A stretch of 4,837 nucleotides of DNA from a virus (taxonomy: Duplodnaviria > Heunggongvirae > Uroviricota > Caudoviricetes): positions 1 to 4,837 of IMG/VR virus record IMGVR_UViG_2660238126_000002. One strand, 5' to 3'. Positions 1-4,837 of this stretch are shown here, piece by piece. Under the pieces are notes generated by a model that saw only the letters and a list, made by a program, of their open reading frames with translations, ran no database searches and was not told the DNA's origin. Both the position numbers and the translations under genes were made by a program. How positions within the stretch are numbered: the first letter of the stretch is position 1; every line of letters starts with the position of its first letter.

Positions 1-123
1 ATTTTTCCTCCATTGAATTTTATGTTTCGCATCTTAAAACAGACGAGGGAAAATAAAATGTACATGTCGCTGTTTCTGGACCCGCCTCGAGAAATTTTTA
101 TTATTTACTGTTGTGTAACAAGG

Positions 124-474
124 TTATAACGCCATCTGAGCCATTTTCTGATAATTCAATCTGTCTGCTGTATCACCGGGCAAGTGGTATTGTTTATTAC
201 GATAAAAAGCGGTGTCAGTAATCATTACGGCGGGAATATCGTGTTGCCAATAATTCAGGTGGTCAGAGAAATCAATACCGGGAATAAACCATGGGGCATT
301 CATAGAATAAACAGATAAATCCCGGGATGATAACAATGCCGTTTTTACCTGACGAACGGCGTTGATATCCTGTATTCTGCCGACCAGGCAATAAAGTCCC
401 CCCGATCGGGATAAAGCCAGGACATTGCGGGTAAGGGTAATCCTGGCTACCAGGCGCAGAGTCGTAATAGCCAA
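124..474 (-). pseudogene. M28-family zinc peptidase-like gene, C-terminal segment
   Basis: Translation contains NVLALSRSGG and then DFSDH...IPAVMITD...YHLPGDTADRLNY, matching the conserved C-terminal motifs of M28 aminopeptidases as I recall them. The expected catalytic core between the two motif groups is missing. Family assignment is by motif recall, not alignment. Confidence 0.4.
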
Positions 475-815
475 TCGGGGACGCCCTGCGCGGTAACTCT
501 GGCACCGCTACTGACAAAGAACTCTTTTATATACTCTACGGACCTATTCAGATTATCAATATTGTCGGCATTACGTGGATGCACAGTTTGTGTAAGATAA
601 CGAACTGTTTTTTCTAATTGCTCAGGACTGACGTGTCGGGGCGTTGGCGATAATGCAGTGACCCAGGGTTGGTAAAAATAATCAGAGGGAGTGAAATCAG
701 AAATAATATAACAAAAGGAGCGCGAAAATACCGTCAGCATGGTATTGCGGGCGGTCATCGTCTGCTGGTTGGTGATCCAGAAGGTTTTATAACCCGCCTG
801 TTTCATCATGTTCAT
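447..815 (-). pseudogene. Same M28-like gene, N-terminal segment in a different frame
   Basis: Translation ...RYLTQTVHPRNADNIDNLNRSVEYIKEFFVSSGARVTAQG resembles the N-terminal region of M28 peptidases. The frame is open upstream to 923 with no SD before the ATG at 815, and it overlaps the 124-474 ORF in another frame, implying a frameshift near 447-474. Confidence 0.4.
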
Positions 816-910
816 CAGCGACGGCTGCGTCAGATACAGATCCGGGTTCTTTTCATTGGCAAAGGTCAGCGNNTNTATCGCGCTGATTTGGCAATTGTGA
901 TGATAAAATA

Positions 911-929
911 AAGTGAAGTTTTTTCACTT
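911..929. promoter_or_regulatory. Perfect inverted repeat AAGTGAA-gtttt-TTCACTT, candidate operator just upstream of the HTH gene
   Basis: 7-bp arms with a 5-bp spacer read directly from the sequence, 16 bp upstream of the ATG at 945 and next to a plausible SD (aaagg at 934-938). Confidence 0.3.
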
Positions 930-944
930 TTTCAAAGGTGTTTT

Positions 945-1196
945 ATGACTGGCTGGGAACTGCGAATCTGGCGAAAAAGCATGCTCTGGTCACGCGAAAA
1001 AGCGGCCAGAGAATTTGGCGTGACGCAGAGAACATGGCACGCCTGGGAAAATGCGGAACAGGTGGACGTCACCGTCTGGAGGACCACCCAGGCACTTTCA
1101 GTCCGTGACCTGCTGCCTCACATGCAGGGGATGCGCAAGGCAGATATCATCAGGCGTCTGGAAAATGAACTGGGGGAAACGGCAGAGGATGTGTGA
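945..1196 (+). CDS. Small HTH DNA-binding protein (XRE/Cro-like), 83 aa
   Basis: ATG at 945 with SD-like aaagg 6-10 nt upstream; stop TGA at 1194-1196. The segment REKAAREFGVTQRTWHAWENA fits an HTH pattern of the XRE/Cro type. Confidence 0.6.
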   Translation: MTGWELRIWRKSMLWSREKAAREFGVTQRTWHAWENAEQVDVTVWRTTQALSVRDLLPHMQGMRKADIIRRLENELGETAEDV

Positions 1197-1207
1197 GCGT
1201 GATTCAC

Positions 1208-1228
1208 AGCCTGGCAGAATGCCAGGCT
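1208..1228. terminator. Hairpin between convergent genes (AGCCTGGCA-gaa-TGCCAGGCT)
   Basis: Perfect 9-bp stem with 3-nt loop between the HTH gene stop (1196) and the stop of the minus-strand small ORF (1227). No clear U-tract on either strand, so terminator function is inferred from position only. Confidence 0.35.
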
Positions 1229-1433
1229 ACTGCTCATCAGGAAACAGTTTTTTCAGTTCTTCACCGGAAAGTCCGGCTGCCTCCTGAATCCGTTCCGGCG
1301 TCCAGCCCATATCCCGCAGCCGGCAGGCTGCTTCCCGCGCCACTTCAAGCGCACCTTTCTTAAAACCTTCTTTAAAACCTTCGTCGAAACCTTCGTCGAA
1401 ACCTTTCTGTATAAGACGTTCTGCAATCGTCAT
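1227..1433 (-). CDS. Orphan Rpn-family C-terminal-domain-like small protein (DUF4351-type), 68 aa
   Basis: [60 protein letters not shown] matches the C-terminal tail of YhgA/Rpn-like (transposase_31) proteins: repeated (E/K)G units followed by a ...GLS.EEL segment. The N-terminal nuclease domain is absent; the frame is open only to 1511 upstream. Confidence 0.55.
1359..1406. repeat. Four tandem copies of a ~12-bp unit (aaaccttcgtcg-like) inside the small ORF
   Basis: Read directly: ttaaaaccttct / ttaaaaccttcg / tcgaaaccttcg / tcgaaacctttc, encoding the [17 protein letters not shown] repeat. Confidence 0.7.
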
Positions 1434-1456
1434 ACTGTTTTCTCTGCTCCTGCTGG

Positions 1457-1482
1457 CAAAAGGCCCGGTATTTTGCCGGGCT
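1457..1482 (-). terminator. Candidate intrinsic terminator on the minus strand
   Basis: Minus-strand read is AGCCCGG-caaaata-CCGGGCC followed by TTTTG: a GC-rich 6-bp stem plus a short U-tract. Confidence 0.4.
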
Positions 1483-1512
1483 GTGAGGTTCTCATCAGTG
1501 AATGATTTTCTT

Positions 1513-1698
1513 CAGTTCAACCTGCTCGACACCCCGGGGCACGAAGACTTCTCGGAAGATACCTATCGTACCCTGACGGCGGTGGACTGCTGCCTGATGG
1601 TTATCGACGCTGCAAAAGGTGTTGAAGATCGTACCCGTAAGCTGATGGAAGTTACCCGTCTGCGCGACACGCCGATCCTCACCTTTATGAACAAAGAC
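1513..1698 (+). pseudogene. prfC: Internal fragment of peptide chain release factor 3 gene (about 60 codons)
   Basis: Translation [59 protein letters not shown] matches the G-domain region of PrfC (about residues 78-137 by recall). Flanking residues on both sides do not match PrfC, and there is no native start or stop. Confidence 0.75.
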
Positions 1699-1882
1699 CA
1701 GCGATCGGTGAGATCGTGCCGCCCGGCGTCGATCAGGGTGATCGCGTCGTTAAACTTCACTACGCCGCTGCATGGCTGGCGGCGATACTGCGGCGAGCGC
1801 CGCGCTCTGGCGCAGGCCGCGCACTCGCAGCCCCATGCCGGAACGCCCTGTGCGCCGCCAGTGCCGGTGAGCGTGAGGGTNA

Positions 1883-2248
1883 GGCCANNTCTNCNTCTCG
1901 CATGTTCTGCATGATGATGCGACGGCGGCGGTAAGCCGGGTCCGCCAGATTCTGCGGATCTTCATCCGGCAGGCGACGCAGGGTCATCTGCGGATTCACC
2001 TCATGCTTGGGTTTGACATATCCCGGCGTAAATTCAGAGGTGGAGCCGCCACGGGAACGGATAACCTCACCGGAAACAATCGGCGAAACGTACAGCGCCA
2101 TGTTTACCAGTCCCGGAATTTGTGAGAGATAGACTTTCTCCGTGGTGAAGGGATAGCTCTCACGGAAAAAGAGACGCAGAAACAGCGGATCAAACTTAAA
2201 TTTCTGCTCATTTGCCGCCAGCAGCTGGGCGGTTGTGTACATCGACAT
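1883..2248 (-). pseudogene. E: Lambda-type major capsid protein gene, 5' fragment (first ~122 codons)
   Basis: MSMYTTAQLLAANEQKFKFDPLFLRLFFRESYPFTTEKVY...PAYRRRRIIMQNMR matches the N-terminus of lambda gpE. Similarity stops after about codon 122, at the N-containing stretch 1881-1895, and the frame continues into unrelated GC-rich sequence. Confidence 0.9.
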
Positions 2249-2268
2249 AAAAAAATCCCGTAAAAAAA

Positions 2269-2282
2269 GCCGCACAGGCGGC
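2269..2282 (-). other. Short hairpin in the D-E intergenic region, followed by a T-run on the coding strand
   Basis: Minus-strand read is GCCGC-ctgt-GCGGC then TTTTTTT (plus-strand A-run 2262-2268), ending about 14 nt before the E start codon. No SD is visible for E. Confidence 0.3.
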
Positions 2283-2303
2283 CTTTAGTGATGAAGGGTA
2301 AGG

Positions 2304-2636
2304 TTAAACGATGCTGATTGCCGTTCCGGCAAACGCGGTCCGTTTTTTCGTCTCGTCGCTGGCAGCCTCCGGCCAGAGCACATCCTCATAACGGAACGTG
2401 CCGGACTTGTAGAACGTCAGCGTGGTGCTGGTCTGGTCAGCATCAACCGCCAGAATGCCAACGGCAGTACCGTCGGTGGTGCCATCCCACGCAACCAGCT
2501 TACGGGTGGAGGTGTCCAGCATCAGCGGGGTCATTGCAGGCGCTTTCGCACTCAATCCGCCGGGCGCGGTTGCCGTATGTGCCGGGTCACTGTTGCCCAG
2601 CGGCTGGTAATGGGTAAAGGTTTCTTTGCTCGTCAT
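2304..2636 (-). CDS. D: Lambda-type head decoration protein, 110 aa, intact
   Basis: [56 protein letters not shown]...TAISIV is near-identical to lambda gpD as recalled. SD AAGGGA lies 5 nt upstream of the ATG at 2636. The 9-nt gap to the upstream stop and 55-nt gap to E match the lambda spacing I recall. Confidence 0.95.
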
Positions 2637-2645
2637 AAACATCCC

Positions 2646-3041
2646 TTACACTGGTGTGTTCAGCAAATCGTTAACGGCATCAGATGCCGGGTTACCTGCA
2701 GCCAGTGGTGCCGGTGCCCCCTGCATCAGACGATCCAGCGCAGTGTCACTGCGCGCCTGTGCACTCTGTGGTGCAGCTGCCAGAATGCGGCGGGCCGTTT
2801 CCACGGTCATACCGGGGGTTTCGGCCAGCACACGTGCCTGTTCTTCGCGTCCGTGAGCTTCCTCACAGTTGAGGATCCCCATAATGCGGCTGTTTTCTGC
2901 CGCAACCGCAGCGGTGATCTGCGCGTTCACGTCCGGCTGCGCCGCGCTGGCGTTTTCGCCCTCCGTCGCTTGCACCACGTCAGTAACGTCAGCCTGCGAA
3001 GCAGTGGCTGAAACAGTTGTTGATTGAGTCTCTTTGGTCAT
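2646..3041 (-). CDS. Nu3: Lambda-type scaffolding protein, nested in-frame in the C-like ORF, 131 aa
   Basis: Internal ATG at 3041 is preceded by a strong SD (AGGAGG, then gcgaa). Product MTKETQSTTVSATASQ...NDLLNTPV is Ala/Gln-rich and scaffold-like. It contains GGATCC at 2873-2878 and GGTTACC at 2690-2696, which I recall as lambda landmark sites. An alternative in-frame ATG exists at 3251. Confidence 0.8.
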   Translation of the reverse strand: MTKETQSTTVSATASQADVTDVVQATEGENASAAQPDVNAQITAAVAAENSRIMGILNCEEAHGREEQARVLAETPGMTVETARRILAAAPQSAQARSDTALDRLMQGAPAPLAAGNPASDAVNDLLNTPV

Positions 3042-3617
3042 TCGCCCTCCTGAGAGACGGGATTTACGTGCATCCAGTGCATCACGCATAACGGTGATCG
3101 CATCGGTGCTGTTGACAAGTTCATCAGCCAGTCCGGCATCAATGGCCTCCTGACCGCTGTACATTGCAGCCTCGGTATCCAGCACAGCCTGCACGGACAG
3201 GCCGGTATATGCCGACACCTTCTGCGCAAACATCCGGCNGGTTGCATCCATCCGGGNCTGCAGTGTCTCGCCGTCATAGGTAATCGGGTTACCGCACGCT
3301 TCCGGGTTCCAGCCCAGCAGAGCCTTAAAGAGCATCTGCCGGACATCGTCCACCACATCATACGAGGCAAACTGACCGCGCTCATCACGCCCGTTACTCA
3401 GTATGACAACCACGGAGAAGCCCTCTTTCAGCTCCTGCCAGTAGTCGGTCTGGCTTTTGTTTTCTCCCGGAGAGTCATCACCCGGTACCACATACGCCGC
3501 CGGGAGTCTCAGCTTTCCGACCTCCGGCAGATTTTTGAACTGTGCCGCGCCTGCTACCCGGTTTTCAAAATACGGGCAGCGGGCACGCAGCGCAGCAATA
3601 ACAGGCGTCAGTTTCAT
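2646..3617 (-). CDS. Chimeric ORF: non-lambda N-terminal ~110 aa joined in-frame to the C-terminal part of a lambda C-like (S49 prohead protease) gene plus Nu3
   Basis: Continuous 323-codon frame. Residues from about 110 onward (...ETLQ.RMDAT.RMFAQKVSAYTGLSVQAVLDTE...) match the lambda gpC C-terminus. Residues 1-110 (MKLTPVIAALRARCPYFENRVAGAAQ...) carry no S49 catalytic-core motif that I can recognise. The ATG at 3617 overlaps the upstream ORF stop (ATGA, 3614-3617). N bases sit at 3239 and 3257. Confidence 0.6.
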   Translation of the reverse strand: MKLTPVIAALRARCPYFENRVAGAAQFKNLPEVGKLRLPAAYVVPGDDSPGENKSQTDYWQELKEGFSVVVILSNGRDERGQFASYDVVDDVRQMLFKALLGWNPEACGNPITYDGETLQXRMDATXRMFAQKVSAYTGLSVQAVLDTEAAMYSGQEAIDAGLADELVNSTDAITVMRDALDARKSRLSGGRMTKETQSTTVSATASQADVTDVVQATEGENASAAQPDVNAQITAAVAAENSRIMGILNCEEAHGREEQARVLAETPGMTVETARRILAAAPQSAQARSDTALDRLMQGAPAPLAAGNPASDAVNDLLNTPV

Positions 3618-4018
3618 CTGTGTCGTCGCTCCGGCTTCAGTGATTTACGCAATTCCCGCGCCAGAAAATAGCGTGTCCAGCTGCGGTTCTTTTCAAGCGT
3701 TTCCACCATAAAGTTATTACGTGGAGCCAGCCGCCAGCCGCTGCCACCGGATGCACCACGATGATGACTACGACGACGTTTTGCTCCTCCCCGGACACCA
3801 AAAAACAGAAACGCCGGATAGAAGTCACCAGAGATCATCCGGTTCCCCTTCCCGTTGCGCTGGTTAGGGGCAATGCGTGTCATAAAACCGGCTCGCTTTT
3901 TACTGGCTCTCGGCACCATGTAACCAATCGAACGAGCCAGGCGTCCGGTCTGATAACCGGGGTTTTCACCCGGTGCCGACCGCGCACGGCGCATCACCAG
4001 CCGACGGGCATCACGCAT
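3614..4018 (-). CDS. Arg-rich basic ORF, 134 aa, unknown function; possibly the 3' remnant of a longer phage gene
   Basis: Only open frame on this strand here, with E. coli-like codons (cgt, ctg, ccg, ggt). Stop overlaps the downstream start (ATGA). No SD before the ATG at 4018, which sits exactly where the sequence becomes AT-rich. Frame is open upstream only to 4084 with no further ATG. Confidence 0.35.
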   Translation of the reverse strand: MRDARRLVMRRARSAPGENPGYQTGRLARSIGYMVPRASKKRAGFMTRIAPNQRNGKGNRMISGDFYPAFLFFGVRGGAKRRRSHHRGASGGSGWRLAPRNNFMVETLEKNRSWTRYFLARELRKSLKPERRHR

Positions 4019-4034
4019 ATGACGCTGACCAATC

Positions 4035-4370
4035 GTGACAAACGATAGATTTATAAAATCTTCATTACCGATCCCTGAACTATACTATCTACCACAGAGA
4101 AAATTTACTGGGATTTCTTTAAAATACAAAGGAAAAATCCCATATACACCAGCTAGTTCAAAAATGAAATGGGATATAGTACAGTCTCTTTTGCTGAAAC
4201 AAACATCCTTATTTATATCAAACAACACAATGCAAGGAAGTAGGAGGAAAAACGAGTTCATCATAAACTCAATAATATGGAAAAAAAATGAAACCTCAAA
4301 TTGCGAATATTCAATCGAAGGAGGTGTTTATGCTCTGTTTAGGTATACTGGTAAGCCTGCTGGCTATTAG
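4035..4370 (+). CDS. AT-rich ORF (111 codons from GTG), possibly the 3' remnant of an acquired gene
   Basis: Stop TAG at 4368-4370 is immediately followed by an intrinsic terminator. There is no SD at the GTG start or at internal ATGs. Lys/Asn/Ile-rich, with no recognisable domain. Confidence 0.2.
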   Translation: MTNDRFIKSSLPIPELYYLPQRKFTGISLKYKGKIPYTPASSKMKWDIVQSLLLKQTSLFISNNTMQGSRRKNEFIINSIIWKKNETSNCEYSIEGGVYALFRYTGKPAGY

Positions 4371-4497
4371 ACCCTGCTTCGGCGGGGTTTTTTTATGGGC
4401 ACGGTGCGGGGTGAGTTGTCGGATGCGCTTCGCTTATCCGACCTACAGGGGAGGATATTGTAGGCCCGGTAAACGTGGTGCCATCGGGCAAAATTAG
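4330..4497 (+). CDS. Candidate small ORF (55 aa) with a near-perfect ribosome-binding site
   Basis: AAGGAGGTG at 4318-4326, 3-nt spacer, ATG at 4330. Product begins MLCLGILVSLLAI (hydrophobic). The frame runs through the terminator hairpin and both REP units, which argues against a conventional gene. Confidence 0.2.
   Translation: MLCLGILVSLLAIRPCFGGVFLWARCGVSCRMRFAYPTYRGGYCRPGKRGAIGQN
4371..4394 (+). terminator. Rho-independent terminator, plus strand
   Basis: Stem ACCCTGC / GCGGGGT (7 bp, one G-U pair) with a TTCG loop, followed by a 7-T run (4388-4394). Confidence 0.6.
4416..4489. repeat. Two REP-like palindromic units in opposite orientation (BIME-like)
   Basis: Unit 1 around 4418-4442 is GTCGGATGCGCTTCGCTTATCCGAC, followed by CTAC. 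Unit 2 around 4460-4489 is GTAGGCCCGGTAAACGTGGTGCCATCGGGC. Both resemble the enterobacterial REP consensus (GCCGGATGCG...CTTATCCGGCCTAC) as recalled. Confidence 0.6.
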
Positions 4498-4533
4498 CTC
4501 GGAGTAACAGGTTTTGATTATTTAAGGAAGTGA

Positions 4534-4728
4534 TGGTGGTGGGGGAAGGATTACTCAACGCTGCGCGCTTCGCCCTTCGGGTCGTTGCCTGCGGCAACGC
4601 TCTCTCGCTGCAAAATGAGTCAGGGAAAACGACACAATCAGGCGCTTATCGCCCTGGCGAGACGACGCTGCGACGTTCTGTTCGCCATGATGCGCGACGG
4701 GACTTTTTATACCCCGCAGGCGTCATAA
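4534..4728 (+). mobile_element. Probable 3'-terminal remnant of an IS110-family transposase gene
   Basis: The frame ending at TAA 4726-4728 encodes ...[34 protein letters not shown]. The spacing GK-9-AR-10-RDG and the hydrophobic pattern match the conserved C-terminus of IS110/IS116/IS902 transposases as I recall it. There is no start codon or SD, and no upstream transposase body in the window. Confidence 0.4.
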
Positions 4729-4837
4729 CATGCTTGACAACTTAATAGGGGTCCCCCGCTTCAGCCCCGTAAAACGCATCTGACTCCCGCACAACACGCA
4801 CTTCAGCGGGTCAACCTTTAGTAACCTCTGATACATC

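Follow-up and report, generated by a model that had tools for sequence, protein, structure and literature searches.

A stand-alone Rpn tail gene in a mosaic viral record and its probable place among the RpnSs genes of IncI plasmids

The window, that is, the whole stretch of 4,837 nucleotides that was analysed (positions 1 to 4,837 of virus record IMGVR_UViG_2660238126_000002), contains a small gene of the family of Rpn recombination-promoting nucleases, a recently described toxin-antitoxin and antiphage family in which repeat number tunes neutralisation. Its product looks like the tail of an Rpn protein, and the locus raises the question of where such a tail comes from, and whether it really stands alone. 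In this family, rpn genes encode from an internal start a small protein, RpnS, which neutralises the toxic full-length nuclease, RpnL; separately encoded copies of RpnS, termed RpnSs, occur on chromosomes and plasmids, for example ypaA, which is rpnESs, and rpnCSs (Zhong et al., 2023, PNAS, PMC10400941). The literature on short C-terminal Rpn antitoxins on which the original prediction drew is real, the class in question was already described in 2023, and the gene itself is annotated in RefSeq. The features of the window on which the following sections draw are these:

876..1518, no strand: block derived from an IncI1 plasmid (100% identity to pESBL-EA11)
945..1196, plus strand: convergent gene for an 83-aa helix-turn-helix protein, WP_000148285.1 (match to Pfam HTH_31 with E = 7e-5, which does not reach the gathering score)
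1208..1228, no strand: hairpin with a 9-bp stem, AGCCUGGCA-UUC-UGCCAGGCU, abutting the stop of the small gene, between the convergent genes (RNA fold z-score −3.0)
1227..1433, minus strand: rpnSs-type small gene for a 68-aa stand-alone Rpn C-terminal (RpnS-like) module (ORF listing, BLASTP, TIGR01784, PGAP, survey)
1353..1400, minus strand: four in-frame 12-bp units, residues 12-27, variable in copy number, in predicted helix 1 (Tandem Repeats Finder and allele comparison)
1430..1495, minus strand: 21-codon upstream frame, whose ATG overlaps the rpn stop (TGATG) and whose stop overlaps the small-gene ATG (ATGA) (three-frame translation)
1463..1481, minus strand: conserved GC-rich hairpin GCCCGG-CAAAATA-CCGGGC in the spacer between rpn and rpnSs, followed by a T-run at 1458-1461 (T4 here)
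1495..1518, minus strand: end of full-length rpn (RpnL), last 7 codons ELKKIIH plus stop (blastn against the pESBL-EA11 locus L001, and translation)

An Rpn tail without the nuclease domain

The small ORF starts with ATG and ends with a TAG stop at 1227-1229. The range of 1227-1511 first ascribed to it holds a real ORF of 68 codons, but its right limit was too wide: the ORF ends at 1433, 1434-1494 is spacer and 1495-1518 is the end of another gene. With an in-frame stop 26 codons before its ATG, the ORF stands by itself and does not form the last part of some longer gene. Its product is identical to RefSeq WP_000150314.1, which carries the newer PGAP name 'RpnC/YadD family protein'.

In BLASTP, this product proved to be 59% identical (E = 5e-19) to the end of the Rpn protein of plasmid pESBL-EA11, covering residues 244-302 out of 304; that protein itself matches PF04754 (Transposase_31/YhgA-like) with E = 5e-78. 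The register of the alignment places Met1 of the small ORF on Met244 of the plasmid RpnL, within the start motif MTIAERL. The Rpn family profile of NCBIfam, TIGR01784, also matches, with residues 13-63 aligned to positions 223-273 of its 273 (E = 1.7e-6); the score of 28 bits, against a cut-off of 52, falls below the family threshold because the tail alone is present. The PD-(D/E)xK-type nuclease domain of PF04754 found no match in the small ORF in a Pfam scan. Taken together, the alignment and the profile bear out the first reading of the product as a homologue of the Rpn C-terminal domain that lacks the nuclease.

One of the profiles proposed for checking that reading, DUF4351 (PF14261), fared otherwise, as a Pfam hmmscan returned no match at E ≤ 1 for the small ORF; at E ≤ 0.1 there was none for three homologues and the neighbouring RpnL. 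Precomputed matches to PF27070 (HTH_Rpn_C) are clear on neighbouring RpnL tails and faint on many close homologues of the stand-alone protein, which we refer to as the S module; for the exact 68-aa protein no such match is recorded, and the local Pfam hmmscan gave none at E ≤ 1. PADLOC had no match for either the small ORF or the neighbouring RpnL. Other weak matches were set aside. Sub-threshold matches to Yae1_N, RepB_primase_C, RecX_HTH1 and Raf1_HTH, and matches to the NCBIfam profile FliH, coincide either with the repeat, which is rich in (E/K)G, or with a helix-turn-helix stretch of a generic kind, and we regarded them as compositional; sequence matches in the PDB, to a designed 'CAP REPEAT' protein and to the DotG/IcmE repeats, reflect a short helix-turn-helix-like stretch that is repeated in the target, and are uninformative.

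The kinship with the tail of the plasmid's own Rpn extends to the DNA. The first 21 nt of the small ORF differ very little from the sequence at the internal start of rpnL (ATGAC.AT.GCAGAACGTCTT), and the 3' ends of the two genes retain a paralogy of 82-84% over 56-71 bp (84% over 56 bp). MTIAERL or MTIADRL stands at the start position in K-12 RpnA, RpnB, RpnE and YpaA, RpnC having MMTLAQW instead. When ranked by identity to the S module, the three tail types of IncI RpnL proteins that are described below come first (type A, 59%; B, 44%; C, 40%), before YpaA (37%) and K-12 RpnC (32%). The chromosomal RpnC, which the PGAP name would suggest as the closest relative, was rejected on these figures, namely, 32% identity against 59% to the tail of the plasmid's own Rpn. 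Over full-length alignments, none of K-12 RpnA-E exceeds 37%, and the 47% obtained for RpnE covers the first 34 residues only.

The original prediction had noticed four internal 12-bp tandem repeats, and these are indeed present. Tandem Repeats Finder reports a period of 12 with 4.4 copies and 87% matches over 1353-1405, of which the four complete units read, on the coding strand, TTCGACGAAGGT twice, TTTAAAGAAGGT and TTTAAGAAAGGT. Published Rpn proteins, RpnSs included, have four-residue repeats whose number differs widely between strains and whose tract sets in 8-20 residues after the Met (PMC10400941); in the small ORF the repeats span residues 12-27. The window allele corresponds to the 3-unit allele of another surveyed locus (L003) with one duplication of TTCGACGAAGGT.

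The AlphaFold2 model of the product is helical (mean pLDDT of 70), with helices at residues 3-11, 18-41, 46-53 and 57-63 and low confidence in the repeat region. A Foldseek search of this model against the PDB gave no match with E ≤ 0.001; the published crystal structure of RpnA-S, 7TH0, a compact bundle of three helices of which the first is long, appeared at rank 31 with a non-significant E of 4.1 and a TM-score of 0.67 by target length, and the later helices gave matches to helix-turn-helix-like folds that were likewise non-significant. Profile sequence search retrieved 7TH0 marginally, with E = 0.089 over 12 residues.

A mosaic window and the native locus on IncI plasmids

The small gene had been taken for an orphan. 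This is literally true inside the window, but not biologically, since native loci have the end of an rpn gene some 61 bp before the small ORF. The small gene seems an orphan because the window is a mosaic in which rpnL is cut at 1518, the plasmid block stopping 24 nt into the rpnL 3' end. The window is pieced together from seven or more unrelated fragments, each of about 150-1,400 bp. Besides the plasmid block, we recognised chromosomal sequence (1-719), a cptA-like piece (about 720-815), a prfC fragment that adjoins the plasmid piece (about 1519-1695), phnP (1696-1885), lambdoid head genes (1883-3273) and a different phage region with a tail-terminator gene (3274-4044). Runs of N lie at or near two of the junctions (872-875 and 1881-1895), and the core genes prfC and phnP are present as fragments of less than 200 bp. 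Complete E. coli genomes match at most 29% of the window at any single place, and none of them carries the junction between plasmid and prfC: among 5,426 searched, none covers 80% or more of 900-1720 in one place. One could still suppose that the window is faithful to a real genome in which the small gene became a true orphan when a rearrangement split it from rpnL, as the given sequence holds no full-length rpn gene. However, the unrelated fragments, the N runs, the reduced prfC and phnP and the lack of any matching complete genome all speak against it, and we regard this reading as highly improbable. The orphan appearance is an artefact of chimeric sequence, and arguments from context, such as 'orphan' itself, are unreliable when drawn from a chimeric window.

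Where the gene does belong can be read from the plasmid block, whose 643 bp are identical to IncI1 plasmids, for example pESBL-EA11 of E. coli O104:H4 (4977-5619 of locus L001; blastn), and which has 1,443 matching places on plasmids among complete E. coli genomes. In pESBL-EA11, psiA, ardA, three hypothetical genes, a full-length rpnL (304 aa; CDS at L001 5596-6510), a 61-bp spacer and the small ORF follow each other in this order on one strand. The small ORF faces the convergent helix-turn-helix gene, beyond which lie a DUF4942 gene and nikA/oriT. We take this DUF4942 gene to be that of the M.EcoGIX methyltransferase, a name found in PMC12672017. The rpn locus is thus part of the plasmid leading region, between nikA/oriT and ardA/psiA. 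The same layout is found in IncI1, IncI-gamma/K1 and IncK2/Z plasmids and in cointegrates. Wherever a native locus includes upstream sequence, the small ORF follows the end of an rpn gene at a distance of about 61 bp; this rpn gene is full-length if the contig is long enough and is otherwise truncated by the contig end, and the only exceptions to direct adjacency are loci with a second free-standing tail module between rpn and the small ORF. Of the loci that are long enough to include it, nearly all have the helix-turn-helix gene annotated at the same position; in a few it is shortened or uncalled. The IncI rpnL upstream of the small ORF also has an in-frame internal Met at the RpnS position.

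The 61-bp spacer contains elements that are conserved among its alleles. Each of the 21 distinct spacer alleles has the hairpin, in the form GCCCGG-CAAAATR-CCGGGY, with a T-run of T4 to T7 after it; in one allele the stem contains one mismatch. RNA folding forms this hairpin, the z-score of the whole 101-nt stretch being only −1.68, and a scan for consensus terminators passed over it on account of the short T-run; we describe it as terminator-like, and termination would be its presumed function. A CAGCAGGAGCAGAG-like stretch precedes the ATG by about 12-13 nt, again in all 21 alleles. The upstream 21-codon frame behaves differently, in that its ATG is in frame with the small ORF only at some lengths of the T-run. 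This variable offset accounts for the database gene calls of 89, 85 and 81 aa, and we rejected such an extended product, whose extension is out of frame in many alleles, that of the window included. The upstream frame is probably no conserved coding extension.

On the other side of the gene, the hairpin at 1208-1228 folded as well in only one of 200 shuffles; it may serve as a terminator, and a U-run after it is absent on both strands. Immediately before the small gene, a scan for sigma-70 promoters detected nothing promoter-like; the sites that it did detect are one inside rpnL and one further downstream. The small gene is therefore presumably co-transcribed with rpnL, through or past a weak terminator.

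The IncI resistance plasmids that carry the gene are very common. A tblastn search of PLSDB located the module on 2,029 plasmids from Escherichia, Salmonella, Shigella and Klebsiella, of which 1,891 are conjugative, and the exact 68-aa protein is indexed in 13,321 blocks of an assembly collection. For closer comparison we surveyed 85 loci, sampled non-randomly and comprising at least 26 DNA alleles. All 85 have an uninterrupted S-type ORF, with no further Rpn module after it. The suspicion that the repeat tract varies in copy number between strains was confirmed, the number of units ranging from 0 (52 aa) to 6 (76 aa) with indels solely in multiples of 12 bp; S alleles of equal length may differ, different units having been duplicated. 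In the repeat-free core, pooled pN/pS is 0.22, and 14 of the 24 variable sites are third positions. As judged from these substitution patterns, the S gene is under purifying selection, and is no decaying remnant.

Tail types and unequal repeat numbers

The tails that precede the S module, inside RpnL, are of three types. In type A, G-R-M/Q-E repeats are followed by ALEKALAIACQLQKMGMTPEQ; in type B, G-I-Q-Q repeats by ALQKAREIARELRNAGMP; and in type C, G-I-Q-K/Q repeats by GRMEEKQDIARQLQKTGMP. The S type has G-F-D/K-E repeats and ends in KKLFPDEQ, and was found inside no full-length RpnL among the sampled loci, so that no obvious cognate toxin is known for it. Some plasmids carry triple arrays, B5|A1|S3 and C6-7|A2|S5, where letters give tail types and numbers give repeats, with a type-A tail standing free between RpnL and S. 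These arrays suggest that tails have been replaced by recombination, the old tail being left downstream as an ORF of its own. If this holds, the S module would be the oldest displaced layer.

The repeat numbers of a type-A tail and the S module next to it do not match. The S allele of the window has 4 repeats, and the adjacent RpnL tail 2 or 3. Among the 16 distinct combinations of a type-A tail with S, equal counts are found in none, and the two counts are negatively correlated (Spearman rho −0.61); permutation gave P = 0.046 for the lack of any equal pair and P = 0.006 for a rho as low as that observed, figures that refer to a non-random sample and carry no phylogenetic correction. For type C the baseline of counting is arbitrary, and the single C3/S3 'equality' is not meaningful. 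Published experiments on RpnC found neutralisation only by RpnS of the same repeat number (PMC10400941). Given this rule, the unequal counts suggest that the neighbouring RpnL may have a cognate antitoxin other than the S protein.

Published Rpn systems and the possible role of the small gene

The nearest likeness to the S gene is found in rpnESs/ypaA and rpnCSs, which, like the small ORF, lie directly 3' of a full-length rpn gene and are homologous to its C-terminal domain. This position, which defines the RpnSs subtype, is that of the small gene in the native plasmids, and the window keeps the last 24 nt of rpnL. YpaA also starts with MTIAERL/MTIADRL, has its repeat tract near the N-terminus and a repeat number unlike its neighbour's, and is closest to its own upstream gene; in the published phylogeny, downstream RpnSs copies cluster with their own upstream gene, and RpnESs is detectably synthesised (PMC10400941). 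However, the small ORF is only 37% identical to YpaA and is plasmid-borne, in the IncI leading region. The gap between rpnE and ypaA is 12 bp, whereas the IncI spacer is of 61 bp and contains the conserved hairpin, and the IncI copies differ further from those of the YpaA type by their repeat range of 0-6 and by the two stacked free-standing modules of some plasmids.

The intragenic RpnAS, RpnBS, RpnCS and RpnP2S share with the S module the same domain, the same start relative to the Rpn tail and a repeat tract that in S is predicted to lie in helix 1, but S has a gene of its own and need not co-evolve residue for residue with the toxin. RpnP2LS, from an ECOR13 plasmid, protects against T-even phages (PMC10400941) and is, like the IncI pair, a plasmid Rpn toxin with an RpnS, the IncI rpnL having an internal in-frame Met as well; the published tests, however, concerned the intragenic RpnP2S and not a downstream copy. 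A further likeness is to the orphan antitoxins which, together with anti-defence genes, are enriched in plasmid leading regions, all on the T-strand (Samuel et al., 2024, PMC11541004). The IncI S gene is small, antitoxin-like and oriented as ardA and psiA, but it adjoins a toxin-type rpnL and is not an orphan. In our literature search we found no later paper on the function of RpnSs, and no report of expression or interaction for this protein.

On balance, we consider it probable that the small ORF is an IncI-plasmid member of the RpnSs class, displaced from the tail of the plasmid's own Rpn, whose product acts as a dimerising, antitoxin-like partner that modulates RpnL, and whose orphan look is artefactual. 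The native block comprises a hypothetical gene, rpnL, the terminator-like hairpin and, as its last member, rpnSs, which has the orientation of ardA and psiA. The S module would derive from the plasmid's own Rpn tail, most likely as the former C-terminus that was displaced when a new tail recombined into rpnL. By analogy with the proteins of Zhong et al. (2023), S would dimerise through its long first helix, the length of which would be set by the number of four-residue repeats, and would bind Rpn C-terminal domains, thereby modulating or neutralising the toxic nuclease RpnL. In favour of this explanation are the homology, the Met at the internal-start position, the tract that begins at residue 12, its copy-number variation, the purifying selection and the constant synteny, and the triple arrays with a free-standing type-A tail argue for the displaced origin. 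Against a cognate neutralisation of the neighbour stand the unequal repeat counts and the difference between the S unit, G-F-D/K-E, and those of RpnL, G-R-M/Q-E or G-I-Q-Q; neutralisation of the neighbour is therefore not assured. Further points against the explanation are the moderate confidence of the structural model, which had no significant match in the PDB, and the lack of DUF4351 and PF27070 matches for the exact protein.

It is because of the published same-number rule that the unequal counts keep two other readings alive. The S module could be a displaced relic or cassette, inert on the adjacent RpnL, that is kept as a recombination substrate for swaps of tail and specificity, or for another role, such as DNA binding of the helix-turn-helix type or autoregulation. 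Its repeat counts, which never equal those of a type-A neighbour, the stacked arrays with two free-standing modules and the three RpnL tail types before a constant S module would all suit a cassette, and exchange could be mediated by the homology that S and rpnL share at their 5' (ATGAC.AT.GCAGAACGTCTT) and 3' ends; Zhong et al. also remark on losses through deletion or fusion, and on a resemblance of RpnS to helix-turn-helix motifs in HHpred (PMC10400941). However, a pN/pS of 0.22 and 85 intact copies in 85 loci point to a function at the level of the protein over passive DNA, and the expected product of a swap, that is, an RpnL with an S-type tail, occurs in none of the sampled loci. We therefore hold a mere relic or cassette to be rather unlikely. 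Less likely again is a form of the action in trans that the original prediction had suggested, in which S would be an anti-Rpn factor, made early from the leading region, that neutralises Rpn nucleases encoded by the recipient or by rival plasmids. The site between oriT and ardA/psiA, in the same orientation, the richness of leading regions in anti-defence genes and orphan antitoxins (PMC11541004) and an S repeat number that varies independently of the neighbour would all be expected of such a factor. But S is 59% identical to the tail of its own neighbour and at most 37% identical to K-12 RpnA-E and YpaA, save for the first 34 residues of RpnE (47%), and the block of S itself includes a toxin gene, rpnL; the specificity of RpnS is narrow, as RpnAS does not block RpnBL (PMC10400941). 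In addition, the text of the paper on the early-conjugation transcriptome of pESBL is without rpn genes, and that of PMC11541004 likewise leaves Rpn unmentioned.

Beyond the probable RpnSs partnership with RpnL, a bolder proposal can be drawn from the arrays, which we offer as doubtful. The IncI rpn locus would be a stack of exchangeable tail modules, in which each new rpnL tail leaves the old one downstream, still selected, and selection would keep the repeat count of S unlike that of its neighbour; S would then provide immunity against the Rpn nucleases of rival IncI plasmids, or a reservoir for switches of specificity, and would not silence the plasmid's own toxin. The repeat mismatch and the stacked free-standing modules go beyond what was described by Zhong et al. 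(2023), and bear on the evolution of Rpn specificity. A mismatch is seen in the chromosomal pair as well, K-12 YpaA having one repeat unit more than the tail of RpnE.

Repeat counts and tail modules behind rpnL

The 68-aa free-standing RpnS-like gene studied here (the S module), whose repeats occupy window 1353-1400, was compared with the C-terminal tail of RpnL, the full-length Rpn nuclease encoded immediately upstream on IncI plasmids. Repeat counts of type-A RpnL tails and of their adjoining S modules were equal in none of the 16 distinct combinations, and the two numbers were negatively correlated (rho -0.61), both values coming from a non-random sample of the IncI-type loci L001-L089 with kinship ignored. 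A one-repeat difference is also found between the chromosomal RpnE of K-12 and YpaA, its separately encoded downstream RpnS copy.

Some plasmids (L022, L066-L075) carry two free-standing Rpn tail modules downstream of rpnL, in the stacked arrays B5/A1/S3 and C6-7/A2/S5, where letters denote module type and numbers denote repeat count. These double modules suggest repeated tail replacement, by which old tails were left as separate small ORFs.

Gene neighbourhood of the small gene

The following features lie around rpnL and the small ORF:

L001 (plasmid pESBL-EA11) 6507-6896, (-): 129-aa hypothetical gene, upstream of rpnL
Window 945-1196, (+): 83-aa XRE/HTH_31-like gene, convergent on the small ORF
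Window 1208-1228: hairpin with a 9-bp stem, between the stop codons of the 83-aa gene and the small ORF

In many IncI plasmids the 129-aa gene shares 4 nt with the start of rpnL, an overlap suggestive of a three-gene operon. Neither Pfam nor NCBIfam assigned this gene to a family, and its sole match in PADLOC was a weak one to 'PRTase_III-A' (E 6e-4). Other plasmids lack it, and there an 88-aa gene directly precedes rpnL. On the opposite side, the 83-aa gene is annotated beside the small ORF in nearly all loci that reach far enough.

Between rpnL and the small gene lies a terminator-like hairpin (window 1458-1481, including its T-run), which is conserved in 21 spacer alleles, with T-runs ranging from T4 to T7. 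An upstream ATG overlaps the rpnL stop codon, and whether it shares the reading frame of the small ORF depends on the length of this T-run.

The exact 68-aa gene, together with its IncI neighbourhood, is also carried by four chromosome-sized records of 5-6.4 Mb (L039, L040, L046 and L047), which suggests plasmid-chromosome co-assemblies or integrated IncI plasmids.

Mosaic composition of the window

Positions 1-4837 combine at least seven mutually unrelated E. coli fragments, comprising chromosomal and cptA-like sequence, IncI1 plasmid DNA, pieces of prfC and of phnP, head genes of lambdoid type and a tail-terminator region from a phage. Junctions fall near 719/720, 875/876, 1518/1519, 1695/1696, about 1883, 3273/3274 and about 4044; runs of N occupy 872-875 and 1881-1895, with lone Ns at 3239 and 3257. 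At most 29% of the window was found in one place in any complete genome. The whole has the appearance of an assembly that is chimeric or of low quality.

Its phage part and right-hand end comprise:

1883-3273, (-): lambda-like head genes, namely an S49 peptidase gene, a head decoration gene and the 5' part only of a major capsid gene
3274-4044, (-): phage fragment whose annotations are a tail terminator and a hypothetical gene
4585-4728, (+): 47-aa ORF whose product closes with ...[28 protein letters not shown]

At 3273/3274 the head genes are joined directly to the tail-terminator fragment, which is of unrelated phage origin. The 47-aa ORF may correspond to the C terminus of an IS110-family transposase. 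The stretch at 4045-4370 is AT-rich, and about 4370-4500, ahead of this ORF, the sequence resembles REP-type palindromic units.
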